From a virus (taxonomy: Duplodnaviria > Caudoviricetes): a stretch of DNA of 64,000 nucleotides. The stretch is from the IMG/VR virus record IMGVR_UViG_3300037313_001002, positions 1 through 64,000 of that record; one strand, given 5' to 3'. Positions 2,633-64,000 of the stretch are shown here, in pieces (the first letter of the stretch is position 1; every line of letters starts with the position of its first letter). The notes beneath the pieces were generated by a model. The model was not told where the DNA came from. It saw only the letters and a list, made by a program, of their open reading frames with translations, and did no database searches. Position numbers and translations under genes: made by a program.

Positions 2633-3568
2633 TCATCTATTTGCTGTGTAACTAAAATTCTGACCCATCGTGGACACATCAATACTTACCAATCTTATTT
2701 CCGATATACTATTGTTGGTTAAGGTCACTTCCAATAGCTTTCCCTGCAACGGTGCGCCGCTAAATAATGCCTGCACCACGTCATTAAATCTTGGGTCGGT
2801 CATATCCCTTAATAAATCAGCGAACCAATCCCCCTGCAAGTTCCTGAAATTATTAGGCTGTAACCGCGACTGCTGACCGTTTGGCTTGCCGTCATACGGT
2901 GGTACGCTTATATCTCCCTGATTAACTGCTCCCCATACCGAATTAGACTGAACCCTCATAGAATAAAAGTTCTTAACCATATCGGGGTCTAAGTTGATAT
3001 AAAAAGTGACTACCGATGGATATTGAACGCCAAAAAAATTATTGAAAAGCGTACTATTATCCGCAAGCCACGGCGAACCGTTTTTAAACTGGAATAGCTT
3101 ATCGCTGTATCTTAAATACATTTCCGCTTCGTGCGAACGATTGCCGCTCCATTGTTTAAACCTTTCGTTGAACACCACCGTCTGCCCGTTATCGGGATTG
3201 AGCAGATGTTCTGCTATCACAACCTGACTGATACTAAGTTGTCCGTCTGAATAAAACTGAAATGAATCTGTGCCATCCCATGTAAAAGTTTGGCTTACTG
3301 GCCCATTCGCTGTTTGAGAAATGCCGTTTTGTGAGCCTAATATGCTATATACTTGACCTGAAACATAATTGCTGATTAAATAGGATACATCATATTGCTC
3401 CCCGGCGACCATACCCAACTGCAATAAACTTTCTCCATAAATCAAATAGCCGGGATTACACGGGAAATGGACAGCTATACTTTGCTGTAACTGCCACCCG
3501 CTATCGGCGAAATCCTGCTCCGGGTCTACGTAGGCTACCTGCCCTGCTATGATTGTTACCAGTCCCAT
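2633..3568 (-). CDS. C-terminal portion of a crAss-like tail muzzle/stabilization protein
   Basis: VVFNERFKQWSG...FQFKNGSPW...NNFFGVQYPSVVTF...KNFYSMRVQSNSVW resembles the C-terminus of crAss-like muzzle proteins (from memory). Confidence 0.55.
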   Translation of the reverse strand: MGLVTIIAGQVAYVDPEQDFADSGWQLQQSIAVHFPCNPGYLIYGESLLQLGMVAGEQYDVSYLISNYVSGQVYSILGSQNGISQTANGPVSQTFTWDGTDSFQFYSDGQLSISQVVIAEHLLNPDNGQTVVFNERFKQWSGNRSHEAEMYLRYSDKLFQFKNGSPWLADNSTLFNNFFGVQYPSVVTFYINLDPDMVKNFYSMRVQSNSVWGAVNQGDISVPPYDGKPNGQQSRLQPNNFRNLQGDWFADLLRDMTDPRFNDVVQALFSGAPLQGKLLEVTLTNNSISEIRLVSIDVSTMGQNFSYTANR

Positions 3569-3927: not shown

Positions 3928-6900
3928 TTAAAAAGCATCAAGTTCTACAATTATAGGTGTATGAACTAAGTATTGTGTTATTGTCAAGCCTGAACTTGGA
4001 ATAGAATAAGGTGTTACAACACCATTTGATGATATTCTTAAAATTCCAGTCCCGCCGTCTGTGCTTGCAAATATTTTAACGTTTATAGTATAACTCCCGA
4101 CTAAAATACTATCCGAACTGCTCCATCCCGGCGTAACATTGGTCTTGCTAAATACAGTAGTTGACCCCTGAAACGCCTTTACATAAGCCATTGTAAAATC
4201 AGTAGTTGTATTATTTATATTAATAGTGGAATACGTTGGCGGTGGCGGTGGAGTCGTAGTTAATTCACAAGCCGCCGAAGATGCCCTTGTCCTGTATCCT
4301 TTCGGCCTGTTAGCGGGTTCAACTACTGTAATACAGCAATTTTTAACAGCACTAAACCCACCACCTGATAATTGCAGTTTATAGGTAAACCCGTCTGAAC
4401 CCACAAATCCACTATTCATGGTTACCACAAAATTGCCACTTACGGGGTCATAAACCACATTGCCATTCGCGGGTTGCGTTACCACAACGCCTGTTGCGCC
4501 TGTTATGACACCATCATCCGTTATCCATGTATTAGCTGTAAAATCATTGCCATATAAAACCGGGATATAAGGTAGGATTGTCCACAATATTTCGCTGTTC
4601 TTGCGGTCTACGCCTGAATACAGCCTTAATTTAAACCTGTCAACTATCTGCAATAACTGACGGGTTGCAGTGTCAAACTGATATATGGTAGAAATAGCAT
4701 CCTGCCCATCACCACCAATCCTCAAAAAAACACCTGAATTTGGCGATGCATGATACTGCATAGTGCCGTTCGATGTCCAGCTTTCAGGATTATTGCCTAT
4801 ACCACCCTCCCATGCCAAGTACTGCATCTCGTTAAGCAAAAATTCCGTAGCGGCCAATAAGGTATTTCCCTGCGCGTCTGTCGTTAACGTGTGGTTGATA
4901 GGAACCCATGCATCCCTCAACTGCTTAAATGCCCACATCCTTGACTCCCTGTACTTGGTAAGCATAATATCGCCATAGGGGTCATCAAAATCCTTCCTGT
5001 CGGCATTATCGAAGTCATTCAGCCCGTTTATGGAACTATCCTGAATATAATTGTTAGAAAACCGCACCCTGCTGCCAAAATGCTTCGCACCTATCCCGGT
5101 GTCCTGCGGGTAAACCCTGCCAATATCATGCAGGTCTGAATAATAAAAATCAGAGAAATTAGGGTCTACGGCTTTGTACACGACCACTTCTGTTCCGGGG
5201 AAAATAGTGTTGGTAGGATATTCCCTGTTCCTGATATAAGCATCGCCGTTGATAATGGTCATTAGTCCCGGCAATAAATCGGTTTGGTTCTGCGTATTAC
5301 AGCTATGATAGGCTTGCGATGTCCCCCAATTTAAAATGGGATATTTAATGCCAAAATCAAAGAAAAGCATATAATCCGGCGAAATATCAGATGCAGGTGG
5401 CTTATACAGTTCAATAATTGAATTGGGGACAATCGTAATCCCGTTGGGTTTTGAAATCCTTATTGTTCCGCGTCTGTCTATAAGCACATAATTCGAGTAG
5501 GATACTGGCGTAAGCGGATTTGTCGTATTATCACTTGCGATAGGCTGGTCTAAGGTATATTGGTTTGAACCTGTATTAACTGCTGTTATTAAACGCTCAT
5601 TGCCGTTTATCTGTATATAAAACCCTGCCTGACTTGCCAAAACCTGAACGGTTACCGATACGATATTTGTTCCGTTTACCGTAACAAGGCCATTCATTTG
5701 TTGGCTTGTTTCCACATTGTAGCCCAATACCTCGCAATCATAAAATTTCGTATAAAGCGTTCCGGTTGTGGTATCGGAACAAATCGGGCGCAACCTGTCA
5801 CCCCTTGCAAAATCATAAGCTAAAATAGAGTTCGGATGAAGCTCATTATAGGTTGGTAAACTACCTATCGTCAAATCAAGATATGTGCCTGCACCATCCT
5901 GCGGGTCAACTTCTATAACTTGCTGAATAAGCACCCAAATAAAAGTAGATGTGTCGGGTGTTCTTACCAAACGCCAGTATTTCGCCCATAATGGCGGTCG
6001 GTGATTGATGGTAATCGTATGAACAGGCTGTTGATAATCGCCATTTGAATTTAAACCTATCTCGGTGATAAAAGGTGTCCTTATAACGCACGTAGATGAT
6101 GTATAAGCGTTGCTTTCCCTGCCATCATCATCAATGTATACAAAAGCATAATTTCTCGTTGTACCGTATTTAATGATGTTTATAGAAGTACCGTCATCTT
6201 TAAGAGTTTCATAGTTCACCGGGTTTACGCTGCCTGAAAAAACGGTCTGCGTTTCTTTCCACTTGCCCAAATAACCGTAATCAAAGGAATTGCTGCCATC
6301 GGCATTCTGCGTTTCATTGGTAATAGCCGCCGCATTGGAGGGATAACCACGACCTATAGACCTTAAAAAGTTTTTAATATTGGCTGCTACCGTTCCTGCG
6401 GTGTCGTTTGGCCCTGCTTTATATTCGTAATAATAGTTATCTGAACCACCCTTATGCGGGTCGATAAAAGGCACGTTATTTAATTTCTGCAAGATGCTCT
6501 GACCACCGTTCCTGCCATACACCCGGAAAATATTGCCTGCCTTTACATCAGCACCTATGGTAAACCTGTAAATAGGATTATAACGCACTATTTCCACGAT
6601 AGCTATAATCAATCCTATTCTCCTCACTTTATCAACAGAAACCAAATCTACGGTAATAGACGGATTATTCAATTGATTCTGAACACCGGGGGGGATGTAC
6701 AAATCCACCCACGATATATTTACCGAAGCATCTACCAAAACCTTGTCAAACCCTTCGGTAAAATTGCTGTAAGTAATGGCATTCTTAACAAAGGACTGAC
6801 ATAAAGGAACACGCGGCAATGCAGGGTTTATGCGATTTATTTTAGCCTGATCGGTGCTTGAATAGGAACCATCATTATAAAATACCCATGTATAAGTTGA

Positions 6901-7794
6901 GTTATCCGAAATATTCAGTTCATCTTTGTCCAGCACCTGACAAATAACAAAATCAGTACTTTGTATCTGATTGTCGGCATTTAACTGTGTATTATTGACC
7001 TTAACGGCTATTTGTATCTTTTTGACAAGCCTGCTCCCGGTCGCAACATTTACATTGATAGCGTTATTGGTATTAGTAATGTTACCCACACCGATATAGG
7101 TTTCACTGGTCGGCAGGGGCACTTTGCTCCAATCACTCCAATTGGAAAGCTCACCATCATCGTAAATGAATTGCAGTGTAAACTTAAAAAGGTTGGCGTA
7201 AAGATTATTGGCATTCCTTGTGGTATCGGTAAAATAAGCGCACGTAGGCGCAAATGGAGCCGTCTGCTTATAGGCGGTAATATATTCAGAGAGTACAGAT
7301 AAGCCGTAGCCAAGCGGTGAACTGTCCAGCATTTTGGCAATGTTGAACTTTCGCGCCTTGTTTAGTCCATCTACCCAATAGATGAGGTTTTCAGCAACAA
7401 TGTCTATATGAAGTATGGGGTAATTGGGGTCAAACGTAAGAATATCAATGTCATCACTCTGCGTGATTGACTGAAAAACGACCGACACCTGCTGATTGAT
7501 GTCGCTGTACTGATATATAGTGTGGTAACCATTAGAATTGTAAACAAAAAAAAAGAACCGATTATTAGCCTCGTCTGCGTAAGAACCTATCGTTTGATTT
7601 GTCCCTGCGGGGAGCGAAGTAAAAACTAAAGTATTACCCCTGATATTTGTTATAACACCTATATTGCCAAAGCTGAATGCCCGGCAGTTGAGCATGTAAC
7701 GCGCCCGGTTTTGGGGAATATATTCAGGTGCGCTATCTGTGTCTATACCGCCTTCAAACGTTTGCTTTCTATATTGTTTCGGTGGTATGTTCAT
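3928..7794 (-). CDS. crAss-like tail muzzle/stabilization protein, N-terminal part (about 1288 aa) with Ig-like C-terminal additions
   Basis: Start moved to the ATG at 7794 (TAATG overlap). Beta-propeller-like N-terminus, FSDFYYSDLHDIGR and RFSNNYIQDSSINGLNDF motifs, then VTQPANGNVVYD...FVGSDGFTY Ig/cadherin-like domain. Confidence 0.7.
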   Translation of the reverse strand: MNIPPKQYRKQTFEGGIDTDSAPEYIPQNRARYMLNCRAFSFGNIGVITNIRGNTLVFTSLPAGTNQTIGSYADEANNRFFFFVYNSNGYHTIYQYSDINQQVSVVFQSITQSDDIDILTFDPNYPILHIDIVAENLIYWVDGLNKARKFNIAKMLDSSPLGYGLSVLSEYITAYKQTAPFAPTCAYFTDTTRNANNLYANLFKFTLQFIYDDGELSNWSDWSKVPLPTSETYIGVGNITNTNNAINVNVATGSRLVKKIQIAVKVNNTQLNADNQIQSTDFVICQVLDKDELNISDNSTYTWVFYNDGSYSSTDQAKINRINPALPRVPLCQSFVKNAITYSNFTEGFDKVLVDASVNISWVDLYIPPGVQNQLNNPSITVDLVSVDKVRRIGLIIAIVEIVRYNPIYRFTIGADVKAGNIFRVYGRNGGQSILQKLNNVPFIDPHKGGSDNYYYEYKAGPNDTAGTVAANIKNFLRSIGRGYPSNAAAITNETQNADGSNSFDYGYLGKWKETQTVFSGSVNPVNYETLKDDGTSINIIKYGTTRNYAFVYIDDDGRESNAYTSSTCVIRTPFITEIGLNSNGDYQQPVHTITINHRPPLWAKYWRLVRTPDTSTFIWVLIQQVIEVDPQDGAGTYLDLTIGSLPTYNELHPNSILAYDFARGDRLRPICSDTTTGTLYTKFYDCEVLGYNVETSQQMNGLVTVNGTNIVSVTVQVLASQAGFYIQINGNERLITAVNTGSNQYTLDQPIASDNTTNPLTPVSYSNYVLIDRRGTIRISKPNGITIVPNSIIELYKPPASDISPDYMLFFDFGIKYPILNWGTSQAYHSCNTQNQTDLLPGLMTIINGDAYIRNREYPTNTIFPGTEVVVYKAVDPNFSDFYYSDLHDIGRVYPQDTGIGAKHFGSRVRFSNNYIQDSSINGLNDFDNADRKDFDDPYGDIMLTKYRESRMWAFKQLRDAWVPINHTLTTDAQGNTLLAATEFLLNEMQYLAWEGGIGNNPESWTSNGTMQYHASPNSGVFLRIGGDGQDAISTIYQFDTATRQLLQIVDRFKLRLYSGVDRKNSEILWTILPYIPVLYGNDFTANTWITDDGVITGATGVVVTQPANGNVVYDPVSGNFVVTMNSGFVGSDGFTYKLQLSGGGFSAVKNCCITVVEPANRPKGYRTRASSAACELTTTPPPPPTYSTININNTTTDFTMAYVKAFQGSTTVFSKTNVTPGWSSSDSILVGSYTINVKIFASTDGGTGILRISSNGVVTPYSIPSSGLTITQYLVHTPIIVELDAF

Positions 7795-8219
7795 TAGTAG
7801 TTTACGGTTGCAAAACCCATATCCTTGCCATCTTTGATATAACGCGGGAAATAAGTCTGTGAAGTTTTTGAGCCAAGCCACCCGTCAACAGGTGAAAGGT
7901 TTGGCATAAATTCATCTATTGTAGCAACGTCCGTTTTGGCTTTTCCTTTAGAAATAGCGTTCCACGCATCGTTACGGTATTTGTTGAACCATTGCTGAAT
8001 AACGGGCACATCTTCATAATTTAAGGAAACGGTAGGGTTTTCGGTTTTATATTGTTCTAAAAGCTGCTTACCTAAATTGGTATCACGCGCATCAAGCATT
8101 TTATTGCCTGACATGCCTTTATTTTTCAGGTAGTCAATAAACCCGTTCCATTCCGTCTTTTTCTGTTCGGGGACGCTGTTTTGTACAGCCTTATATTTAC
8201 CCATGTCAAAACTTGCCAT
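7794..8219 (-). CDS. hypothetical protein, 141 aa
   Basis: Tightly packed between the DHS-like and muzzle genes; VDGWLGSKTS weakly resembles a peptidoglycan-binding motif. Confidence 0.5.
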   Translation of the reverse strand: MASFDMGKYKAVQNSVPEQKKTEWNGFIDYLKNKGMSGNKMLDARDTNLGKQLLEQYKTENPTVSLNYEDVPVIQQWFNKYRNDAWNAISKGKAKTDVATIDEFMPNLSPVDGWLGSKTSQTYFPRYIKDGKDMGFATVNY

Positions 8220-8220
8220 T

Positions 8221-9246
8221 TTATTCTCCTAATACGTAAGCAAAAATTAAAGGGGCTACAATACTTGCATCGCTCTCCACAATGAACTTTGGCGTGCTGA
8301 CGGCCAGTTTACCCCATGTTATCTTTTCATTCGGTACAGCACCGCTATATGAGCCATAAGATGTTGTTGAATCACTTATCTGACAGAAATAAGCCCAAAC
8401 AGGCGTATCTTTCTCTTTCATCTCCTGCGACAGAAAAGGTACGACACAAATCGGGAAATCCCCCGCTATGCCGCCGCCAATCTGAAAAAAGCCTATCTTC
8501 TTGCCGTTCTTTTTATACCATTCCGCAAGCCACACAAAATAATCAATACCGCCTTTTACTATTTCACATTTGCACTCTTTGCGCATAACGCAAGCGGCAA
8601 ACATATTTCCGGCACTTGAATCCTCCCATCCGGGTACAACAATAGGCAGGTTCTTTTCGGCGGCGGCCAGCATCCATGAGTTTTTGGGGTCAATTTCATA
8701 TTGCTTTTTCATATCACCGCTTAAAAGCAGTTCATACATATATTCATGCGGGAATTTGGGTTCCTTAGACTCCTTCCACAGCTTTGACAGGTGTTCCTCC
8801 ATCCACTTCATAGCTGAACTGTCGGGAATACAGGTATCGGTTACGCGGTTATATTTATCATCCAGCAAACTTTTTTCCTCTTTGGCATTCAAAGTGCGAT
8901 AATCGGGCACTCTTTTATAGTGAGAGTGCGCCACCAGATTCATTATATCTTCTTCCAGATTAGCCCCGGTGCAACTGATGATTTGAACTTTATCCTGACG
9001 TATCATTTCAGCCAGCCAAATACCTAACTCTCCCGTGGACATCGCCCCGGCAAGCGTTATCATCATTTTACCGCCCTTGTCGATATGTTCAGCGTAAGCC
9101 TCTGATGCTTCGACCATCGTCATAGCATTAAAGTGCTTATAGGAATTGACCATAAAACTGCCGATAGCCCCTAACTTGCGTTTTGGCTTTTCAGGTTCCC
9201 CGATTTTACGTTCCTGCTGTAACCGTTTTATCTTTGTGATGTCCAT
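8221..9246 (-). CDS. deoxyhypusine synthase family protein (DHS-like, possible homospermidine synthase)
   Basis: TLAGAMST, SCTGANLEED, PGWEDSSAGN, QIGGGIAGDF and GSYSGAVPNEKITWGKL with the catalytic-position Lys. Confidence 0.9.
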   Translation of the reverse strand: MDITKIKRLQQERKIGEPEKPKRKLGAIGSFMVNSYKHFNAMTMVEASEAYAEHIDKGGKMMITLAGAMSTGELGIWLAEMIRQDKVQIISCTGANLEEDIMNLVAHSHYKRVPDYRTLNAKEEKSLLDDKYNRVTDTCIPDSSAMKWMEEHLSKLWKESKEPKFPHEYMYELLLSGDMKKQYEIDPKNSWMLAAAEKNLPIVVPGWEDSSAGNMFAACVMRKECKCEIVKGGIDYFVWLAEWYKKNGKKIGFFQIGGGIAGDFPICVVPFLSQEMKEKDTPVWAYFCQISDSTTSYGSYSGAVPNEKITWGKLAVSTPKFIVESDASIVAPLIFAYVLGE

Positions 9247-13276: not shown

Positions 13277-13825
13277 TTATTCGAGATAACGACCGCTTAT
13301 ACCGTTATCTTCATAAAACTGTTTCAAATCATTAAAAGCTTCTTCTTCGGTTTTAAAGCCAAATCTACGTTCATGTTTTCCTTTGAAAAATATAGCCCAC
13401 CGCCAAGTAACGCAAGTTCTATTTTTTCTCATAGAAACACCTTTAAACCTGCTGCTTTTATTTTTTCTTGAAGCCAATTGTCCATGCAGTGTATTCTCAT
13501 GATGCGTAGACCATTCAAGATTAGTGTAATGGCAATTATTTCTGTTACCATCCAAATGATTAACCTCTGGTTTACTTTCGGGATTTGGTACAAAATACAT
13601 AGCAACTAATCTATGTATGGGAAATATTTTTTCATTGCCATTTTTATCAAAAAGTCTCACTTTGATATATCGTGATGACTTAGTAACTTTGGCATTAGGA
13701 CTCAGTATCCTATGCAACTTAAACTTTGTGGACTTAACCCGCCCACAATTACTGATTTCGTACAGCCCAACGTACCCTGCGATAGACTTCCATTCTTCGC
13801 CGGGTAAATTTTCAATTAATTTCAT
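13277..13825 (-). CDS. NUMOD4-HNH homing endonuclease with an AP2-like C-terminus
   Basis: EEWKSIAGYVGLYEISNCGRVKS; IHRLVAMYF...VNHLDGNRNNCHYTNLEW; SSRFKGVS. Confidence 0.9.
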   Translation of the reverse strand: MKLIENLPGEEWKSIAGYVGLYEISNCGRVKSTKFKLHRILSPNAKVTKSSRYIKVRLFDKNGNEKIFPIHRLVAMYFVPNPESKPEVNHLDGNRNNCHYTNLEWSTHHENTLHGQLASRKNKSSRFKGVSMRKNRTCVTWRWAIFFKGKHERRFGFKTEEEAFNDLKQFYEDNGISGRYLE

Positions 13826-35897: not shown

Positions 35898-36146
35898 CTA
35901 AAAAATTATTCTTTTAGTTGTATAATTTCCAATTGAATAAGTCCCTTTACAAATAGGGCATTTTTTCGCAAATCCAAGCCAATTATGAACTACTCCATAT
36001 TGACAGTTTGGACAGGGTATATTATACTTAGTAATGATAAAACCGATGGCGTTATGATGCATTACCTGTAATCCGATAGGGCTTTTAAGTTCAAATGTTT
36101 CCATATTTAATCTATTTTGAATAAATCCCGTTGTGGGAAGTACCAC
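35898..36146 (-). CDS. small zinc-ribbon protein
   Basis: CPNC...CPIC; true start probably METF. Confidence 0.45.
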   Translation of the reverse strand: MVLPTTGFIQNRLNMETFELKSPIGLQVMHHNAIGFIITKYNIPCPNCQYGVVHNWLGFAKKCPICKGTYSIGNYTTKRIIF

Positions 36147-36382
36147 TCTACATGAACTAATGAATCGCCCTGTTGCCAGATTTCGTCCATGTCAAGATAG
36201 GTCTGCCCGTTTAGTTTGGTGTACGCCTTGTTAACGCTGTCGGCTTTCATGGGGTGATGTGGCTGAAAGGCTCCCTTGTTAAATACATTAGCCCTGACCA
36301 GACAGGTGTCTCCCACTTCACAAGCGGTATAATCTTTCCTGCACCCGTACAGTAAAAATAATAAAATAATTGCTTTTTTCAT
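36107..36382 (-). CDS. putative lipoprotein
   Basis: MKKAIILLFLLYG-C lipobox-like signal. Confidence 0.6.
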   Translation of the reverse strand: MKKAIILLFLLYGCRKDYTACEVGDTCLVRANVFNKGAFQPHHPMKADSVNKAYTKLNGQTYLDMDEIWQQGDSLVHVEWYFPQRDLFKID

Positions 36383-40955: not shown

Positions 40956-43669
40956 ATGAAAAATTTAATCTCAAACAACACAGCGAACAATGCAATAGAA
41001 GCTAAAATTATAGTCGATGGCTTCTTGTCCTCTTTAACAGATAAACAATGTGCTGATTTAGCTTTTAGGTCTATCGAAAACGATGCAATGCACACAATGC
41101 CATTTAGAATATCATACGCAATAGGTTCAAGTTCTTTTTATTATGGTTCTGAATGCAAACGCTTTTGTACCGATGTAATATCAAACACCCTTTTTAACAG
41201 GGGCTTTAAATACATCAGGGAAACCAAAACCTATAAGATTTTAAACCAAAGCAACGGCCAATTTACTTTAGCTAAAACAATAGCCGAAATATCCAGAATG
41301 TTGGATGCTCCGGTTGGCTTGGTTAAGTTGCATATCGATAAACCAGTTCAGTTAAACGGATACCAGATAACGACACTCTAAGTTCTGCTAAGTCTTAGCG
41401 GTCTGCCAGCCGGGGTTGAAACAGCCTCCGGCTTAAGGCAGTAAAAGACAATAACATTATGACAAAGACAAAAGGCATACGCAATATTGAACTATCGGAC
41501 GAGGTAGTATTAGCACTGTTAAAACAGGGACTTGACAAAGGTTTTAAAAACTTCAAGCCATATGCTGAATACATCTTAACCGAGCAAAGCAAAAGAAACT
41601 TAATCAAGTAATATATCGTTTAAACAATTAAAAACAGTCATCAAATAATGAAAACTCAAATTAAAACTACAAAGAACTTCGATAAATTGATTGAGGCTCT
41701 GAAATCAGGTAAGCTGGAAAGCAATAACCAATTAACCTATATGATGTCATGCCTGAACAATAAGCCGGAACTAAAAGAACTTATAGACGAAGTATTGGAT
41801 TGCCGGGAAATTGAACTGGATGCCGAACAAATTGCTAAGGGCTATCAGTGGTTAGTTAACCAGTGGAAAACTCCACGCGGTGTTGAGCGCAAAAACAATC
41901 CATTTGGCTATCGCGAACAGGATGCGCTTGAAAACTTCCAAACTATCTACTTTAAGGGCTATTATGATGCCGGAAACTGGAACTTTCATTACTACCTGCC
42001 TTTGTACTATGTGCAGGGCAAAGAAAGAGGCTTTGAGTATTATGTTTCAGGCGGACAAATACACATCGTCGGATAATCTTCACAGGCTTTTACGGTGACT
42101 TGTTTTTGCCGTGAAGTCTTAGGCTGCTGACTGTATTAATTTACGGAGCAGCCTTTCGAGGTGCAAGACAATGACGTTTTGCTTTAAAAACATAGTCACC
42201 ATGAACACACTTGAAAATCCGGTATCAGCTATCATAGCTATTTACCTCTTGGCCTTAGCCGTCCTTGTATATGGAACGGACTGGAAACATGAATTAACTG
42301 ATCTGTTTAATATCTTTAAAAAATCTGTGAGATGAAACAAAACGATATAGATAACATAGCTTATTTAATTGCTGGCTTATTTTACGGGTTCTTAATTTGC
42401 CTAATGGTTATAGCCATATGTTTAAAGCCATAGAATCAACTAACACCCTTAACTGATAACCAACATTAACCAAAACAATTAACGCGCTCTACGGGCTTAA
42501 AAATAGCCTTAAATCGAAAACCAATGAGAAAGCTATTATTATCTATCATAATCCTGTCCGCTATTTGCGCGGGTTGGTTCGCCTCTGACTATTACCGCTC
42601 TTTGGGCAAGGTCACTATTACCGGGGTTTATCCCGATGGTACAGGCTTTACATCTGTCACCTTTATTCAGGATGGCCGGGAATATGGTTATGACTACTTA
42701 ACCGAAAAAGAGTATTTACAGTTTATTAATCAAAATCATTAACAGTCATGGAAACATTAAAAGATTATCTATTAACGCAAGATATGGGCGAAAAATGCGC
42801 CAATAAAATATGCGATGCTGTTTTAAACGATACGTTTGACGCGAACAGCGACCCGATAAGCGCAATAATTATAAATGCGTTTAAAAACAACCTTTACACC
42901 AAATACCCTTTGTTTGAAAGTGATTTTGACGCTTTTGAAATGGATTTAGATTATGCAATCAACCAACTGAAAAAAGTAAAGCAGTTTGTGAATGAAGTCG
43001 CCAATAAATACCAGTAAATTAATTATGTCAAAGAACCCTTAAAACTACTAAAAAACCTTGATAATAACAAACATTTTAAGTAAATTGTAAGATGAAAAAC
43101 TTAACCAGATTAACTCAAAACAAGGCACTTAACGAAACACTTTTCGCTATTGCCGATAATGCCGCCCTGCGTTCTGCGGGTGTACCCCGTGAACAGGCTG
43201 AACGGATAACCCTTTCCGGGAACTTCCATGAATTAAAACGGTCACGATCTCTCTGCTGTTTCGCCCCTATTGAGGATGGCTATTGTTCATACTGCGGGAT
43301 AGAAACCGATAACCTTTTGTAACTATGATTAAGCACGATATAGTTATCATATTGTCAACTATTGCAATTATGTTGCTTATTCATTTTCTTGCAAAAGCAA
43401 CTGCTAAATGGACTATTATTATCTTATCAATTTACATTGTACTTGTTTTTCAATTTTTATTGATGCTTATTTTAATTTAAATCATGAAAAAACCGGACTA
43501 TATGACACTACTAGCTAAAAAGCTAAGGTCAAAGCAGCGTAAACGTAAACCCATTTTAGGCTGGCAGGCCATAGACCCTGAAACAAGGCGGGTACTGGAA
43601 GAAAACAACAGTATTTGGATTTTACGGGCTAAGTACGGCTCCAATGCCCTTTATAGTTCTATAAGATAA
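40956..43669 (+). CDS. early-region small genes (40956-41381, RHH-like 41459-41602, 41648-42076, TM-anchored 42524-42742, 42748-43017, 43092-43322, 43484-43669)
   Basis: Co-oriented ORFs separated by hairpin-containing spacers; 41459-41602 translated by hand (MTKTKGIRNIELSDEVVLAL...). Confidence 0.5.
43023..43036. repeat. TTATGTCAAAGAAC repeat (also 44377-44390; 12-bp core inverted at 36406-36417)
   Basis: Exact intergenic copies; the reverse complement resembles boxA (GTTCTTTGACA). Confidence 0.6.
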
Positions 43670-53250: not shown

Positions 53251-53455
53251 CCAAAAACAGATATGAAAAGTTCAAAAACAGACGGTTCAGATATTTGGAT
53301 ATGTATAATTTTTGAAATGCTTTTAGTATTCATTTTTATTAATTCAATAGGCTTAGAAAGCGTAAAAGGCGTTACAAAAAATTTTATAATTGCACTAAGC
53401 AGTACAAATGTATTTATATGGTCTATCTTTTCATTCCTTAAAATCAAACAATATT

Positions 53456-53827
53456 ATGATGAACATTAAACCAACATTAACATTAATCCTCGCCCTGCTG
53501 ATAGTAACATCGGTGAGGGCGCAAAATATATTTGGGCCGCATACCCATACTGTAATTAAAACAGCGCAGTTATTTTTTGAAGCAGATACGCCAAAAGTTA
53601 TTAAGCGTGACACTATCAGATGTTATTTCAAAGAACTGGAAGTAAATCACGATACCATTACAGAACATTGGCGACACGGATATCAGGTTATTGACACAAT
53701 GGGTTCATATCATTATACAGGCGTTTGGGAAACTATGGAACATGATACACAACTGGAATGTTACCTTTATCCCGACCGCAAGACGAAAGTAACCAATCAA
53801 GTCATTTATTCAATCAGCTCAAAATGA
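53456..53827 (+). CDS. exported protein with a Sec signal peptide
   Basis: MMNIKPTLTLILALLIVTSVRA-Q. Confidence 0.65.
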   Translation: MMNIKPTLTLILALLIVTSVRAQNIFGPHTHTVIKTAQLFFEADTPKVIKRDTIRCYFKELEVNHDTITEHWRHGYQVIDTMGSYHYTGVWETMEHDTQLECYLYPDRKTKVTNQVIYSISSK

Positions 53828-54099
53828 AAAAACCACTCTTAATCTTATTAGCCACCGTCTGCATGAGTGCAGCTTTCGGTCAGCAAAAACCCGACACCGC
53901 TAAAAAAGTAAAAATAAACCAAGCTGAAGTCTGGGATATTCACAGTAGGCTATCCAGAGCGTTAGACATTATTCACCGGGTGCACTTTGACGCGGTTCAA
54001 AGGGATTCTATTGACAGATATCTCGCGCCTTGGATAAGTGAAATCGAACGTAGATACCAAAATGCGATTCCTGAAAAAACGGAAGGAGTTAAAAAATGA
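53824..54099 (+). CDS. exported protein with a Sec signal peptide
   Basis: MKKPLLILLATVCMSAAFG-Q. Confidence 0.65.
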   Translation: MKKPLLILLATVCMSAAFGQQKPDTAKKVKINQAEVWDIHSRLSRALDIIHRVHFDAVQRDSIDRYLAPWISEIERRYQNAIPEKTEGVKK

Positions 54100-57076: not shown

Positions 57077-57601
57077 TTAAGTTTGATATGGTATTAATCT
57101 TGAAAGCCAGCTATGCCCCCATTGAGCAAAGCCATGTGTATTTTCGTAACGTGCTTTACGCATTGCATTAATTTGGTTGTATATAGCCTCTGCATCCCCG
57201 TTATTGACACCGTTTAGTGTTTGTTGACCAACTATACCATCTTGTATAACGCCTGCGGCAGATTGCATAAAACGGGCTGCTATGCCCGACCCTTGATTAA
57301 TTGAACAGTCAAACAGGTTATTAGCTATTTGTTGGTCGTTCACTTCATCAAGTTTTAGTACGTCCCAATAGTTAGCCTTAAAGAACCCGTGAACCTTTGC
57401 CATGAAGTCGGGGTCATTGAATAGCTTATGTGTAATGTTAGCATCCGTGTCCGGCTTTAACGCATCTACAATAGACCATCCTGACCAATTGGGGTTTTGT
57501 CCTCTGTCAATACCCATAGCAGTCTCGGCTTCGCTACCATTGTTGCTATATCCGGCCTCTGTTTTTTGCGTAATCGCATCCGCTATCAAAAAATCTGCCA
57601 T
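57077..57601 (-). CDS. endolysin, glycoside hydrolase family 108 with a PG-binding C-terminus
   Basis: EAGY...ETAMGI, YWD, LFDCSINQG, QSAAGV..DGIVG..TL, FAQWGHSWLSR; start at ATG 57601. Confidence 0.8.
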   Translation of the reverse strand: MADFLIADAITQKTEAGYSNNGSEAETAMGIDRGQNPNWSGWSIVDALKPDTDANITHKLFNDPDFMAKVHGFFKANYWDVLKLDEVNDQQIANNLFDCSINQGSGIAARFMQSAAGVIQDGIVGQQTLNGVNNGDAEAIYNQINAMRKARYENTHGFAQWGHSWLSRLIPYQT

Positions 57602-57603
57602 AC

Positions 57604-57941
57604 TCAATCCACCGTTTCTATTGTGTTCAAATGTAACTTAGCCCAGATAACTACAAAAGCTAATGCCAGTGCTATTATAGCACCTAAGAAAAGCCATCGG
57701 TTTTTAGGGATATTGGGGAAAGGGGTCATTGTTAACAAGTTATAGGATTTTGCCACCATTGACCGGGAGTTGTATCCCACCGTCTTGGCTGAACTTCATA
57801 ATATGGTTGCAATTCTTGCTTAACGATTATTACCTTATCTTGTTGCGGAACAATAGTTTGCTTTTCATCCATCAATTCCAATGCTTCATCAAAGGTTATA
57901 TGCCCCGCTTTGAATAGCCTTTCAACAATTTCTTTTTTCAT
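57604..57941 (-). CDS. two small genes (TM peptide 57604-57729; 57732-57941)
   Basis: Hand-translated RWLFLGAIIALALAFVVIW; ORF track. Confidence 0.45.
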
Positions 57942-58247
57942 ATTACAAATTAATCAGGTATATAGCCAAAAAATAAGCCAACAGCAATAACACGTAACCT
58001 ATAACTAACTTTTGTTCCGGGTTTTGCATACTGTAAATCTAACAAACTATTTGCAAAATTCAAAGTACCAATAAAATAAGCATAATCAAATATCCTTATA
58101 TTCCATTAAAAAGCTAATTAGTGTAATAAATTTTCGCTTATTCTATTGGAGTGGAATTAAAAAGCCACACCCCTAAAGATAGTCGGAATGTGGCCTGTTT
58201 GGTATTTATATGGTCTGTAAGGGGGAACAATTTCGTACGTGGATTGT

Positions 58248-59492
58248 TTAATGCACCGTAATATTTTTCCTTTCCACGCTCAACAGGTACGCCGCCAACA
58301 GCACCATAGCCGCAACCTTTGGAAAGTGACATACAGCCCTTACCGTTACCTCGTTCCAGTTGTGCAGGTAGCCAATATCCCAAAAACCGTAATAGAGCCA
58401 TTCTAAGCCATGTTCAGCCCCGACCAGTACAAAGTATAGTATCATTAACTTTCGTAGCCTACCATTGCGCATTTGCCAGAATTTAAAGGCTATAAAGCAA
58501 GCCAGTAGAACAATGACAGCATACTCGGTTTGTGATAAGTACATTTCGGGTGTGAGGTTCATTTCTTTCCTAACGTTTCTATTAAGGTTTTAAGGGAGTT
58601 TAATAAATTGAAATTTTGATTATTGGAGTTGATTACCTTTTCGTTGGTTTCGTTCTGCCTTTCAAATTGTCGTTCTATGGTCTGCCGCCACATTTCACGT
58701 TCCTGCTTGTGATCCCTGTCCTTTTTGGCGTACCATATAGCGAATACGATAAGGATAATACCGAGGATACCATAATTGGCTAATTCGTTCACATTACTTG
58801 CTTATTGATTTTTCCAAACCCCAAATGGCCTTTTCAAGACGTTCAAAGTTTTCATTGAGCCTTTCAATATCCGGCTTAACCTCATCCCTGATTAATGTCT
58901 TAACCATTTCCTTTTGCTTGTCAGAAAAGTATTTGAATATCAAGTCGAAAGCTTTCCACAATAAACCAAATATGGTTAAATAAGGCAGCAAGTCCTCGAA
59001 CAGTTGAAGCCATTGATTAGAAGGTATAGGTGGTTGTGCCATCGTTTTTGTATTCATTGTAAATTCTCTAAATATATAAAATTTCGGCTAATCTCAAAAC
59101 GGGTGTTTTAACGGTATTTTTTAGTATTTCAATGTTCGGTTCCTGACTCCCGTCCACAATATAATGATTGTAGTCAGCAACACGGAGGTATTAAAGCAAA
59201 TAGTGAGCCTGAACGTATCACTTAACCACCCATGCCTGTTGGCTATAATAATCAGATAATTTGTCACTATAAGCCAAACACAAACTAAGTTAAACTGTTC
59301 ATGAAAAAATCCTTTGAACTTTCCCATGTGGTCAATCAGGTGGAATAACAACATACCAAGCGTGAGATAGTTGTAAAAAAGTTTGACATAATGCACGTCC
59401 CAATAGGTATGGGTAAGTTCATAAATATACAGGTTAAATAACGCCGTATAAATACATATTACCGATAGTGTGAGTATTGTTCTGAACATCAT
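58248..59492 (-). CDS. four membrane proteins (58248-58562, 58559-58792, 58794-59057, 59121-59492); holin/antiholin-like candidates
   Basis: One to four hydrophobic segments each; two have a TM followed by a charged coiled coil; upstream of the endolysin. Confidence 0.55.
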
Positions 59493-59690: not shown

Positions 59691-62600
59691 TTAGTTATTA
59701 GCTATAATAATCCAATTTGCATTATTTGATTGTACTGAAACATATTTCCATTGTGCCGATAGTGCATAAGTAGTTGAACCATCGATGGTTTGAGAGCTTG
59801 TTGTCCCGACCGTTACGGCATTACCTGAACTATCTATTTTCTTAATAATATATATCCGACCTGCACAGCCGACAGCCGTAGGAAGCGTCATAGTGAAGCC
59901 TGCACTCGTAGCATCCCCTGTTACGGTATAGTCGGTGTTGGTTAAGGTATAACCAGTGGTTTTGGCAGTTGTAGAAATAGCGGTAGAAAATGAGGTGGTC
60001 TGTATTTGAGAGCCATTGTCGGTAAAAGTACCTCCATGTTGAAATAGCGCATTACCGTTAGGAAAAATCTGGAATGATGATTGCGTAGCACCATTAGAAC
60101 CGCCGCTGACATCAAAGATGAGTTTACCGGACGACCAAGAATTGTAGATATGTGTATTGTTATCCGCATCCATAGCAGATATACGTCCGTAAACACTGCT
60201 ATTGAACTCCGACCTGATTGCTGCTCCGTTCGGTTGAAAAATATCCCCTTGCGTACCAGTGTTAGCGGTTGTAGTTGCGGCCATTAATAACTGCCCGTGA
60301 TAAAACTTAGCAGCCAACTTACTTCCGGCATTATCACCTGCGTCGTTGTAAAATAGTATTCCCGATCCATTATAATGGTTTCTAAAAACCATATCGGCAT
60401 TTGAATTGAGTAACTCAATTGTGTTTGTAATAAGATTATTGCCACCTGACCATGCGGATACCATTTTGGTTTGGTCTTTTATCACCCAATCCTGAGAACC
60501 TGGGGTCGGTGATGGAACGGTTGCCCCATATTCCCACAGATTGCCCATGATGTTCATTACTCCGTTGTACTTTGTGCCAGATGGAATGGACGATAAAACA
60601 CCCATTTTACCGGATGTGTCCATACCGACTATATAATTATTATCCACGTCAGTTAACGGATAGAAATTTTTAAATCGCAATTTCCATAGATCGACCTGCC
60701 CATTGGCTGCGAGTGATTGTCCCAGCTTATAAACTTGATTATTGATTAATGACTCTAAAACGTTAGCGCGTAAAGCATGTCCATAGTTATTCGGGTGCGT
60801 ACCGATTCCAGTGAAATTTGAACCTAAATCATCCAAAAATAGACCTCCGCTATTTTTTGTAGCTGTATAAATATCAGCTAAAATACTTCCATAGTTAGCG
60901 GCTTCAACCGCAGTTAACGAGTCTACGCTTTTGCGATACGCTTCTGTACTGGGGCTATTTCTTAAATTAGTAGTGCATAAAATAATCCTACCAGCAGGCC
61001 ATCCTTTAGCAATAGTGGCATTCATTACCGTATCCATTGCTGCCTTTAGGTGCGTTAAGTTATATCCGGAATTTGAAGTGTGTCCGTCAATATCATTGAT
61101 ATTAAAATCGTAAACTATATAAGAATAAGTTGAACCATAAGTGGGTATAGAAGATGTATTTTGTGTCATAGCATAACCACCACTATGGGATGGGTTTTCC
61201 CATGTTGATCCACTTACCGCGTTATTTACCTCTGTAAACCCAAGCATCCGGCAAAGCACCGTTGAGTAACGGTAATAGTTGCTTGTAGCATCTGAACCCG
61301 CAGCAATACTGTGACCAAAGAAAACAATATTATTACCTGTTTTTTCAGGCAGGTTTGTGACGCCACCAAAATAAGTACTGTCAATGTTTAGATTAAAACC
61401 ACCATTGCTTACATGCCTGTTTCCGGCCAATGTTCCATCTCCGCTATAAATAGTTGAACCGCCGCCTGAACCGTTACTTGCTGCTGTCAGCCTGCCTTTG
61501 CTGTCTACGGTGATGTTCGCATTGGTGTAGCTGCCCGGCGTTACTGCTGTGGTTACCAAAGTCGGGTTAGGATAGTTTCCCGTCAGGTCACCCCCTGCTG
61601 TCCCTGTTGGTGCAGCACCTGAATAAAAGTCAACATTCCAAGATGCTGCCGTTGTCCCGCTCGTTAGGATACATTTAACGATAGCTGTGGTTCCTGTGGC
61701 TAAAGTCTGTACCGTATTGCCACCCGATGAAGTGACGGTCACAACCCCTGTGCTGTTGTTGCTGATTTTATAGGACATTCCCAAAACTAATGTTGAGGTA
61801 ACAGGTAGCTGAACGGTTTGGGTTGTTGTCCCGGTGATAGTCGTTTGGTAAGGGGAATTAACCGCTAAAGTAGTAGTTGCGCCCGTTGAGTTGATGGACT
61901 GATAACCGCTTATAAAATTAGTGCCGTGAGTATTTGAGTTTCCATCGTATTGCGCAATGACCGAAGCCGTAGGGGTTGCTGTAGCATCGGATATTAAAGT
62001 AACGTTCTGTGAACCATTGAACGAAGTGGCACTGCTTGTCAGATTAAAGTGCTGACCGAAAGTAAGGGGGAAAGTTGTTGTACCACTGCCTTTTTTGCCG
62101 CCCCCACCAACGGTTACTGTCTGCCCAATAGGGGGTATTAATATTTCTGCAATATCTAAGCTATTAGCTGGTATAGACGGTATTGGTGGGATAGGGTCAG
62201 TTGAAAGCCCCCCGTTGTAAGCTGTTATTGTCGCCGTTGCATCAATTCCTAATATCGTATATTGATACCGTGTAGCATCCTGCGCCGGGATAGTTGTGTT
62301 TACTGCGCTACCTAAAGTATAGGTTAAATTATTTATTCGATACGTACCTGTTGTGGTATGCGCTGTTGTCGGCCCCGTAATAGTTGTTACCATCCCGGTT
62401 AAAACAGTATTCACTAATTCAAGATCAGCCAAACGGGCTACCTGTGTCGAATAAATAGGTGCATTAAGAACATTTAAGCTATCCGTTGTTAGCGAAAAGC
62501 CACCATTATGAACATATCTGTTTGAACTTAATGTGCTGTCACCTGTGTAAATCGTTGTCCGGGTTGTGCCACCACCACCGCCTGTAACCCAGCTAAGCGT

Positions 62601-63035
62601 AGTGCCATTTGTCCCTAATACTTTACCCGATTGTCCTGTTATAGAGGGTAGTGCCTGACCGCCCCATTTATCAGAGTTAATGACCGTAAAAGGGTTTGAA
62701 TAACTGCCGTTACCGCCAAAGTAAACAGTACTAAGGTAAAATGAACTGTCGGCAAAAGGATTTGGTGCTCTCCATTGACCGCCAAGATAAAACACTAAAG
62801 TGGTGTCCGATGTGCGTATGCCTATCATGCCATCCCGCGGTGGTGCGTTGAAAGTCGTGGGGTTAGGGAATACAGGTACGGAAAGGTTGTACTGGTAGTC
62901 GCCGTTAGCCCACCCGAAATACTGACTGTTTTTGTTAGCACCGCTTGCGGGTGTTACGTTCTGCTGTGTTACTTTTTGTCCTTGACCGAAACAAAACAGC
63001 GGGATAAATGCTAATATATAAAGTAGTCTTTTCAT
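59691..63035 (-). CDS. fibre/spike-like protein with an SGNH/GDSL esterase domain and an N-terminal signal peptide
   Basis: [18 protein letters not shown] and THPNNYGH blocks; [12 protein letters not shown] and [25 protein letters not shown] fibre motifs; G/T/S-rich. Confidence 0.8.
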
Positions 63036-64000
63036 ATTTTACTTGCCTTTCCATGCACCCGGATAATCACGGTATTTGTTGTAATTGTAAAACTTATCGT
63101 TGTTGTCGCTGTGCCGCCCAAATTAGTTGCGCTGACTGTATAAGTCGTAGAACCCTGCACTACACTTGGTGTACCACTAATAACCCCAGTTGTGGTTGAA
63201 AAGAATAAACCCAAAGGCTGTACAGGGCTGATAGACCAACTAACAGCCGAACCACCCGTATTACTTGGAACTATATTTGATATAGGTGCGTTTACAGGGA
63301 ATGAATAACTATTTGGTGAATAGCTTATCACAGGTGGTGGTGGTAAGTTAACGGTTATCGTTAAATTAAAATGGCTTACGCCTGAAATATTTGTCGCTGT
63401 AACCGTATAAACTGTTGTTGCCGTTACTGCCGTAGGCGTACCGCTTATTACGCCATTAGAAGTGTTTAAAAGCAGTCCTAAAGGCAAAGCAGGGCTGACT
63501 GTCCAAGTGCTTGAACTTCCACCTGAATTTGTTGGCGTTAGGTTAGAAATGGGTGTTCCCACCAAGTACGTTTGAGGGCTGCTGTAACTGATATTTGGTG
63601 CAGGGGGATTAACGGTGATACTAACCGATGTTGAACCTGAACCGCCTGAATTTGTCGCCGTAATCGAATACGAAGTTGTAACCAACGTACTTGACGGTGT
63701 GCCTGAAATAACGCCTGTTGAGGTGTTAAAAGAAAGCCCCGCACCAATAGCCGGGCTAATGGCATAGGAAACAACAACCCCACCTGTGTTATTTGGGGTC
63801 ATGGGAGTTATTGGACTTCCTTGCGTAAAAGTCACCACCGATGGGGTATAGCTGATAACCGGGGGTAACGCATTGACGATAATGGTTAAAGGTGCTGTCC
63901 CGCTACCTGCCGTATTCGTGGCTGTAATGGTAAAAGAACGGCTTGCGGTCACCGTAGTCGGTGTTCCTGAAATAATGCCCGTAGAAGTGCTGAAACTAAG
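63032..64000 (-). CDS. Ig-like (He_PIG) repeat protein, 5' end outside the window
   Basis: Repeated ISY...TPTN.GG...[21 protein letters not shown]...YTVTATN units; frame open to position 64000. Confidence 0.8.

Follow-up and report, generated by a model that had tools for sequence, protein, structure and literature searches.

A fibre-like SGNH esterase with a predicted Sec signal peptide in a crAss-like phage from soil points to a possible periplasmic route for a tail fibre

The 64,000-nucleotide window analysed here comprises bases 1-64000 of a complete virus genome of 73,032 bp (IMG/VR record IMGVR_UViG_3300037313_001002, Caudoviricetes), which has direct terminal repeats of 127 bp and was assembled from a soil metagenome. 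Near the end of the window, a minus-strand gene encodes a protein of 1114 amino acids (aa), hereafter P0001, in which a predicted N-terminal signal peptide precedes fibre-like modules and an SGNH esterase domain (Table 1). Tailed-phage particles are held to assemble wholly in the cytoplasm. The reading towards which we lean, with modest confidence, is that P0001 is a receptor-binding fibre that leaves the cytoplasm through Sec, is trimmed, and joins particles at lysis. As judged from comparative evidence, the leader very probably directs export, and the mature protein is probably part of the virion; on balance we expect both to hold together.

The leader was judged by sequence rule and by its conservation in relatives. 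As stated in a preliminary description of this DNA, P0001 begins with 17 leader residues followed by Gln: K2 and R3 form the n-region, a 14-residue hydrophobic core extends from L4 to G17, and the predicted cleavage site has Pro at -6, Cys at -3, Gly at -1, and Gln at +1. AlphaFold2 (AF2) modelled residues 2-16 as a lone helix. The ATG is the first possible start in its frame, with no earlier in-frame start; the preliminary description had the coordinates of this open reading frame (ORF) right, while it overlooked the minus strand and the leader of the upstream neighbour. Gln at +1 corresponds to the Q-rule known for signal peptidase I substrates in Bacteroidetes, in which this residue is then converted to pyroglutamate by cyclisation (PMC5837995, PMC10653852).

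Ten further proteins (representatives of clusters with <50% identity) were retrieved when residues 1-320 served as the query of an exhaustive HMMER search; together with P0001 they are referred to as the N-domain family. In all 11 members, the alignment begins at the protein's own residue 1, the start reads M-(K/R)-(K/R), and a leader of 16-18 residues with a hydrophobic core of 13-15 residues and Pro near -6 ends with Gly, Ala, or Ser at -1, followed by Gln at +1 and a conserved mature start (xVTQQxxTPASGAN). Small residues are found at both -3 and -1, while the sequence of the core varies and its properties stay constant, which points to a signal peptide, not a docking peptide, as the object of selection; furthermore, cores of 13-15 residues are too short for a stable membrane span. 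The family members range from 171 to 1557 aa, differ in their distal modules (e.g., K1-lyase_C), and lie on contigs of 69-76 kb, close to the size of the genome studied here. A locus search with the N-terminal 320 aa of P0001 found no related loci. The preliminary description had invoked the Q-rule and proposed export, to be given up if homologs lacked the signal peptide; as all 11 members of the N-domain family keep both leader and Gln at +1, the proposal now has strong comparative support.

With regard to the destination, the lipobox [LVI][ASTVI][GAS]C does not match, since P-L-F precedes Cys15 in P0001, and in the majority of family members Cys is missing from the region of the cleavage site. 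The C-terminal domain of the type IX secretion system (T9SS; TIGR04183, TIGR04131) gave no NCBIfam match in P0001 at E <= 1, nor, at E <= 0.1, in the 793-aa protein encoded upstream and in the analogues from Cellulophaga phages that are described below. Lacking lipobox and T9SS C-terminal domain, P0001 has the periplasm as its predicted destination.

The identity of the mature protein as a fibre is suggested by several of its parts. The "phage-fibre motifs" named in the preliminary description find their counterpart in the module at residues 330-500, which is common to more than 100 proteins, many of them on IMG/VR viral contigs, and in a shoulder-like model of residues 205-314. The AF2 model of residues 1-320 had a mean predicted local distance difference test score (pLDDT) of 54.7 and was usable only for residues 213-313, with residues 205-314 at pLDDT 70-93. 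In structural alignments with VIA-align, residues 205-314 matched the A-1(L) tail fibre (Z 7.6), Mtd (7.5), SPP1 gp22 (7.5), the receptor-binding proteins of phages 1358 (6.8) and p2 (6.2), the HFTV1 fibre (6.8), and TssK (6.1), compared to 4.6 or less for unrelated fn3 folds. With all Z scores below 8, the modelled resemblance to the shoulder domain of phage receptor-binding proteins is suggestive. A Foldseek search gave no match at E <= 0.001, and the AF2 model of residues 545-1114 (pLDDT 39.5) was too poor for the fold of residues 770-1020 or for active-site geometry. P0001 had no match in PHROGs, nothing useful in NCBIfam, only 1 spurious low-complexity match among PDB sequences, and only sub-threshold leads in the protein atlas (0.88; Mtd_N, viruses).

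The distal part of P0001 is shared with other fibres. Its C-terminal knob, a likely distal binding tip, has counterparts at the C-termini of P0019 (80% identity) and P0007 (71% identity), and in tblastn searches it matched tail-fibre genes of a Thermocrinis virus and a Microcystis phage. The esterase and the domain of about 250 aa that follows it (residues 770-1020) are 43% identical to P0223, a fibre that lacks a leader and has the classical start MPTDKKISELP, collagen repeats, and a canonical GDS motif, and which is the only named homologue and originates from a metagenome-assembled genome labelled Bacteroidetes bacterium. The N-terminal domain (residues 18-115), with its invariant residues Q18, Q25, P54, G69, and D77, is a candidate virion-attachment domain, and the combination of a constant N-terminal domain with swapped distal modules is the design of virion-anchored receptor-binding proteins.

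The fibre module at residues 330-500 also occurs in other phages. Five contigs carrying it (38-77 kb) were searched for the TerL of this genome without a match, which indicates that they belong to unrelated phages. Leader-like starts were seen on about 20 of 86 fibre-module ORFs of such unrelated IMG/VR contigs (L025, L026-L028, and L033), some of them lipoprotein-type (LSGC) or without the Q-rule. Exported fibre-like phage proteins may thus perhaps be found beyond Bacteroidota too, to judge from these N-termini.

Lipase_GDSL_2 (PF13472) is the single Pfam domain in P0001 (residues 572-755) and was matched over the full profile (1-178) with an E value of 2.1e-10 and 41.8 bits, compared to a cut-off of 32.9. 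Its motifs were compared across four aligned modules, those of P0001 and of three relatives (P0223, P0131, and P0009). Block I reads FFGHSIAAG, in which the nucleophile Ser is kept; GHS in place of GDS, as the preliminary description had pointed out, is unique to P0001, the three relatives having GDS. The block II Gly (AVSGS) and the block III Asn (NIND) align with those of the relatives, while the block III Gly is replaced by Asn. The block V His is kept as well (GTHPN), whereas the Asp at -3 is absent in P0001 and P0223 and present in P0131 and P0009. It is possible that Ser and His act as a dyad or that the Asp is provided by another site. Given the GHS in block I and the missing block V Asp, activity of the P0001 esterase, though predicted to be likely, is not assured.

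The genomic context agrees with a phage of Bacteroidota. Within 50,697 phage records, TerL matched the Cellulophaga podophages phi18:3, 46:3, 19:3, and 13:2 (22-24% identity) as well as Maribacter phage Panino and the Flavobacterium "elemo" phages (22-24% identity), and no others; the hosts of these cultured relatives are Flavobacteriia only. Moreover, ORFs of 1317 aa and 311 aa match phi18:3 gp114 and gp115, and the 311-aa ORF contains the C-terminal domain of the Crassvirus muzzle. The muzzle protein thus seems to be divided over two genes, as in phi18:3. Together, the TerL relatives, the gp114 and gp115 homologues, and the muzzle match assign the phage to those with a crAss-like virion and predict that its host is almost certainly a Bacteroidota.

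The late genes lie on the minus strand and run across the terminal repeat, from TerL, portal, and head genes to the muzzle and three more ORFs, followed by a 2050-aa protein, proteins of 122, 154, and 192 aa, the 793-aa protein, and P0001, and they end with four small membrane proteins and a GH108 endolysin. The ATG of P0001 overlaps the TGA of the 793-aa gene as ATGA, so that the two genes are translationally coupled. In PhicrAss001, which likewise has a crAss-like tail with a muzzle, the fibre genes gp22-26 directly precede the lysis genes gp27-30, and their products have been seen by cryo-electron microscopy (cryo-EM) as enzymatic and modular fibres (PMC10172136). The fibre identity of P0001 is therefore supported by a slot upstream of the lysis genes that holds cryo-EM-assigned fibres in PhicrAss001. 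In contrast to P0001, none of gp22-26 carries a leader, and residues 1-26 of gp22 are retained and dock in the hub (PMC10172136).

The arrangement recurs in an independent, complete phage genome (G006; 73,487 bp with terminal repeats), whose TerL is 32% identical. There, the start of the gene for a leader-bearing fibre of 1557 aa (P0131) is overlapped by the gene for a 194-aa protein with 42% identity to the 192-aa protein, and the same four small lysis-region proteins follow. The N-terminal domain of P0131 is 39% identical to that of P0001 and its esterase region, with a canonical GDS, 27%. In the 18.8 kb of G006 that were examined, P0131 is the only gene matching the P0001 fibre. A locus search with the 192-aa protein, singly or as an alignment, retrieved G006 only; this protein is a candidate fibre adaptor or chaperone. 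The gene for the 793-aa beta-helix protein is absent from G006.

The 793-aa protein itself carries a leader (MMMKKALLPLLLFILPLLCFG, followed by DD), with predicted cleavage after CFG and before DD, which does not follow the Q-rule. A right-handed beta-helix begins directly after the leader, and the C-terminal part consists of four He_PIG Ig domains. Leaders were found on 10 of 10 homologues. Since one of these homologues and P0010, the closest relative of P0001, each lie on a contig of 74,381 bp, the pairing of a P0001-type fibre with a beta-helix/He_PIG protein probably recurs. A recent duplication of the leader was considered as well and rejected, as the leader-coding DNA of the two genes has no significant similarity. 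Furthermore, a leader-bearing beta-helix/He_PIG protein (P0228) and a 1756-aa double-SGNH fibre without a leader (P0009) each come from a contig of 25,704 bp. The two are probably encoded on a single contig, in which case partners need not both carry a leader.

Comparable leaders are present in cultured phages. The podophage phi18:3 (KC821620, Pachyviridae) has Q-rule leaders on 3 of 3 genes in this slot (gp085-087), and the unrelated siphophage phi10:1 (KC821618, Assiduviridae) has them on five consecutive genes (gp091-095). Seven of these 8 Cellulophaga proteins (gp085-087 and gp091-094) are annotated in GenBank as "structural protein" from experimental tandem mass spectrometry (MS/MS) proteomics, and the literature searched contains no comment on their leaders. 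Like P0001, they are large late proteins with Gln at +1, encoded just upstream of lysis genes, and several resemble the 793-aa neighbour in being of the beta-helix "pectate lyase" type. The phi18:3 lineage is also related to the phage studied here (TerL 24% identical, gp114 and gp115 homologues). However, the Cellulophaga proteins have no detectable sequence similarity to P0001 or the 793-aa protein and carry no esterase.

In the reading we favour, P0001 would be a modular, probably trimeric receptor-binding tail fibre whose N-terminal domain anchors it on the crAss-like tail. The 17-residue leader would carry it over the inner membrane, host signal peptidase I would cut before Gln18, and the protein would fold in the periplasm, to meet the cytoplasm-built, DNA-filled particle only once the adjacent holin/endolysin cassette breaches the envelope. 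With the fibre in the periplasm and the particle in the cytoplasm until lysis, attachment would fall at or after lysis. The translationally coupled beta-helix/He_PIG enzyme would take the same export route. On the tail, the SGNH module would strip O-acetyl (or similar acyl) groups from host surface polysaccharide, as fibres of the G7C type do; gp63.1 of E. coli phage G7C is a deacetylating SGNH receptor-binding protein. Actual export and cleavage, the pyroglutamate, the time and place of attachment, the trimer state, and the activity and substrate of the esterase are all elements that we infer. The preliminary description had allowed two fates for the exported protein, receptor masking by display on the cell or addition to virions after periplasmic maturation; the fibre slot of the crAss-like module and the MS/MS-annotated Cellulophaga analogues support the latter indirectly, while no specific evidence was found for the former.

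A broader proposal, which we advance tentatively and consider rather less than evenly supported, is that tailed phages of Bacteroidota, including this one, split their assembly: heads and tails would be built in the cytoplasm, whereas fibres and spikes would be Sec-exported, pyroglutamate-trimmed, possibly O-glycosylated, folded in the periplasm, and joined via the holin. With split assembly, the exported esterase and beta-helix enzyme would already modify the infected cell's own receptors before lysis.

Several points weigh against a fibre that is exported and then added to the virion. We know of no tailed phage that adds Sec-exported parts. The phage is uncultured, coming from a soil metagenome, and P0001 is known from its sequence alone. 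The fold of the N-terminal domain gave no usable AF2 model, the fibres of PhicrAss001 carry no leader, and the P0001 esterase has a GHS block I and no block V Asp. The phi18:3 and phi10:1 proteins are positional analogues rather than sequence homologues of P0001, and their presence in virions rests on MS/MS annotation, a type of data that can include co-purifying envelope or secreted proteins. In addition, the podophage and siphophages have 82% identity over the first 118 residues of phi18:3 gp086, which is odd for a tail-specific anchor and would suit a host-directed role.

A host-directed role leads to an explanation that we regard as unlikely, though one to be taken seriously, namely that P0001 and the beta-helix/He_PIG enzyme are exported and never join the virion. 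Periplasmic and released at lysis, they would strip or de-acetylate envelope or capsule glycans, and another protein would be the true receptor binder; the receptor would be destroyed or masked, superinfection blocked, progeny kept from sticking to debris, or release helped. The genuine, conserved leader, the enzyme domains on both proteins, the location beside the lysis cassette, the Cellulophaga N-terminal module common to podophages and siphophages, and the reading of Porphyromonas Q-rule prophage genes as secreted envelope modifiers (PMC10367356) all suit such enzymes. Moreover, the beta-helix of the 793-aa protein starts right after the leader, leaving no room for an anchor domain, and the absence of its gene from G006 marks it as accessory. 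However, the conserved N-terminal domain with swapped distal modules corresponds to the design of virion-anchored receptor binders, the esterase module is also found on the classical leaderless fibre P0223, analogues in two cultured phages are annotated as virion proteins from MS/MS, and none of the other large ORFs searched had a fibre or receptor-binding match. Furthermore, since neither protein matched the T9SS C-terminal domain, there is no obvious way over the outer membrane before lysis. Overall, the role of an exported enzyme suits the accessory 793-aa protein better than P0001.

It is improbable that the hydrophobic N-terminus serves a purpose other than export, with residues 1-17 buried in a hub or adaptor or acting as an inner-membrane tether until assembly. 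In its favour, tailed phages assemble in the cytoplasm in all cases studied, the leaderless 192-aa upstream protein, which is conserved and translationally coupled, could be a docking partner, and in PhicrAss001 the first 26 residues of gp22 do dock into the hub (PMC10172136); the N-terminus of gp22, however, is hydrophilic and unlike the leader. In a docking peptide the sequence itself would be conserved, and anchoring in a membrane would take about 20 hydrophobic residues, whereas the N-domain family keeps the properties of the leader (basic n-region, core of 13-15 residues, Gln at +1 in 11 of 11) and not its sequence; a leader of this kind is also retained in the unrelated beta-helix family. 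Least probable by far is a host-derived secreted adhesin or esterase carried as a moron without a role in the phage cycle, or a chimera of assembly. Leader-bearing fibre-like adhesins do exist in bacteria (PMC10769870), and the sole named homologue, P0223, comes from a genome labelled as bacterial; against this stand the complete genome with its 127-bp terminal repeats, the translational coupling of the gene within the late operon, the orthologue in the same slot of the independent phage G006, and the phage-sized contigs of the family members.

Sequons for the general O-glycosylation of Bacteroidota, of the type D(S/T)(A/I/L/V/M/T), were counted. P0001 contains six (DTT77, DST166, DSL185, DST552, DTV668, and DSL705), exactly as listed in the preliminary description, whose caution that this count is weak evidence was also justified: with 4.6 expected (shuffle p = 0.31), the number is at chance level, and a sequon enrichment in P0001 was rejected. 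Most members of the N-domain family have a 1.5-3-fold excess of sequons. It was also observed that the invariant Asp77 (with a nearly invariant Ser76; residues 75-77, positions 62805-62813) belongs to a D(S/T)x motif that fits the O-glycosylation sequon in 8 of 11 members, possibly a conserved glycosylation site or simply a structural motif.

Table 1. Features of P0001 and of related genes. Positions refer to the window unless marked as genome positions.
Feature	Position	Strand	Remarks
P0001, whole gene, 1114-aa leader-bearing fibre-like SGNH esterase	59691-63035	(-)	
Predicted signal peptide, Sec/signal peptidase I type, residues 1-17	62985-63035	(-)	predicted cleavage before Q18
Conserved N-terminal domain, residues 18-115	62691-62984	(-)	directly after leader; QxxVTQQ..TPASGAN..
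Fibre motif and Gly linker, residues 116-165	62541-62690	(-)	up to 11 repeats in many relatives; also in ORFs of viral contigs
Shoulder-like beta-sandwich, residues 205-314	62094-62423	(-)	AF2 and structural alignment
Widespread fibre module with small knob, residues 330-500	61536-62048	(-)	
SGNH/GDSL esterase, residues 572-755	60771-61322	(-)	block I GHS (Ser576), III NIND (Asn648), V GTHPN (His749)
Domain travelling with esterase, residues 770-1020	59976-60728	(-)	no fold assigned
C-terminal knob, residues 1024-1114	59694-59966	(-)	
793-aa protein gene	63032-64000, on to 65413 of genome	(-)	beta-helix, then four He_PIG Ig domains
192-aa protein	genome 65418-65996		no leader; upstream of 793-aa gene
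2050-aa late protein	genome 66846-72998, beyond window		no Pfam or PHROG match
Small membrane proteins of lysis cassette	59121-59492, 58794-59057, 58559-58792, 58248-58562	(-)	downstream of P0001
GH108 endolysin	57077-57607	(-)	lysis cassette spans 57077-59492
311-aa ORF	2633-3568		Crassvirus muzzle C-terminal domain (crAss_MUZ_C), E 6e-8
1317-aa ORF	3928-7881		match to phi18:3 gp114

Further observations concern the remainder of the genome. The 2050-aa late protein, which may be a crAss-type cargo protein, has 0 D(S/T)(A/I/L/V/M/T) sequons, compared to 5.8 expected from its composition. An HNH_3/NUMOD4 homing-endonuclease-like ORF of 182 aa (13277-13825) lies among the head genes, and the deoxyhypusine-synthase-family ORF (8221-9246) named in the preliminary description was borne out by Pfam (DS, E 9e-41). 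Outside the late operon, leader-like N-termini were seen on four small ORFs (36107-36382 (-), 42524-42742 (+), 53408-53827 (+), and 53758-54099 (+)), one of which is lipoprotein-like (LLYGC) and two of which have internal MKK/MNIK starts with leaders ending in AQ or GQ; these may be exported early or moron proteins. The Bacteroidota-type promoter pattern TTTG-N19-TAnnTTTG showed no enrichment (2 matches compared to 0.7 expected). Among the matching sequencing runs, no RNA run is listed, and the only one with a full match is a soil metagenome, maybe the source sample.

In the literature searched, we found no description of leaders on tailed-phage fibres or of virion parts that pass through the periplasm. 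Esterase fibres are known, and Q-rule leaders have been noted a single time on phage genes, namely on functionally unassigned genes of Porphyromonas prophages (PMC10367356). Our analysis adds an esterase-bearing leader fibre with sequons at chance level, an N-domain family with Q-rule leaders in 11 of 11 members, a second leader-bearing family (beta-helix/He_PIG), a syntenic complete relative, and the contrast with the leaderless PhicrAss001 fibres in the same slot. If the favoured reading is true, the lysis step also completes the virion, and it becomes clear how fibres could acquire pyroglutamate, O-glycans, or disulfides from the host periplasm, modifications with effects on stability and host range. 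For Bacteroidota phages from gut, marine, and soil habitats, including the crAss-like ones, the way in which fibres are to be expressed for host-range engineering, structure determination, and depolymerase or esterase discovery would change as well. Moreover, a Q-rule leader on a fibre would be a simple sequence marker for predicting the host phylum, and the export claim is directly testable in the cultured Cellulophaga phages.

Among known systems, P0001 resembles the deacetylating proteins of phages G7C, Possum, and epsilon15 in that an SGNH esterase is set within a fibre-type protein. Those proteins, however, have no signal peptide and are assembled in the cytoplasm, whereas P0001 differs from them by its GHS motif, the missing block V Asp, and the lack of a sequence match to any solved structure. 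Among phage receptor-binding proteins, SGNH fibres and spikes with deacetylating activity form an established class (PMC9569702), in which an esterase embedded in the virion fibre or spike recognises a polysaccharide of the host surface and de-O-acetylates it, as in the fibre of Pectobacterium phage Possum (PMC9569702) and the epsilon15 tailspike. The Porphyromonas gingivalis prophage genes of unknown function, whose products were read by the authors as secreted envelope modifiers (PMC10367356), are similar to P0001 in being phage-encoded with Q-rule signal peptides and differ in not being fibre-like. A matching architecture is found in the mosaic adhesive trimer (MAT) fibres of Bdellovibrio bacteriovorus, in which a signal peptide and a conserved beta-rich N-terminal domain of some 130 aa precede a long, phage-like trimeric fibre whose tips can be exchanged (PMC10769870). 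Although these are chromosomal bacterial adhesins displayed on the cell and not part of a virus (PMC10769870), they demonstrate that Sec-exported proteins with a leader, an N-terminal domain, and a phage-like trimer do fold outside the cytoplasm.

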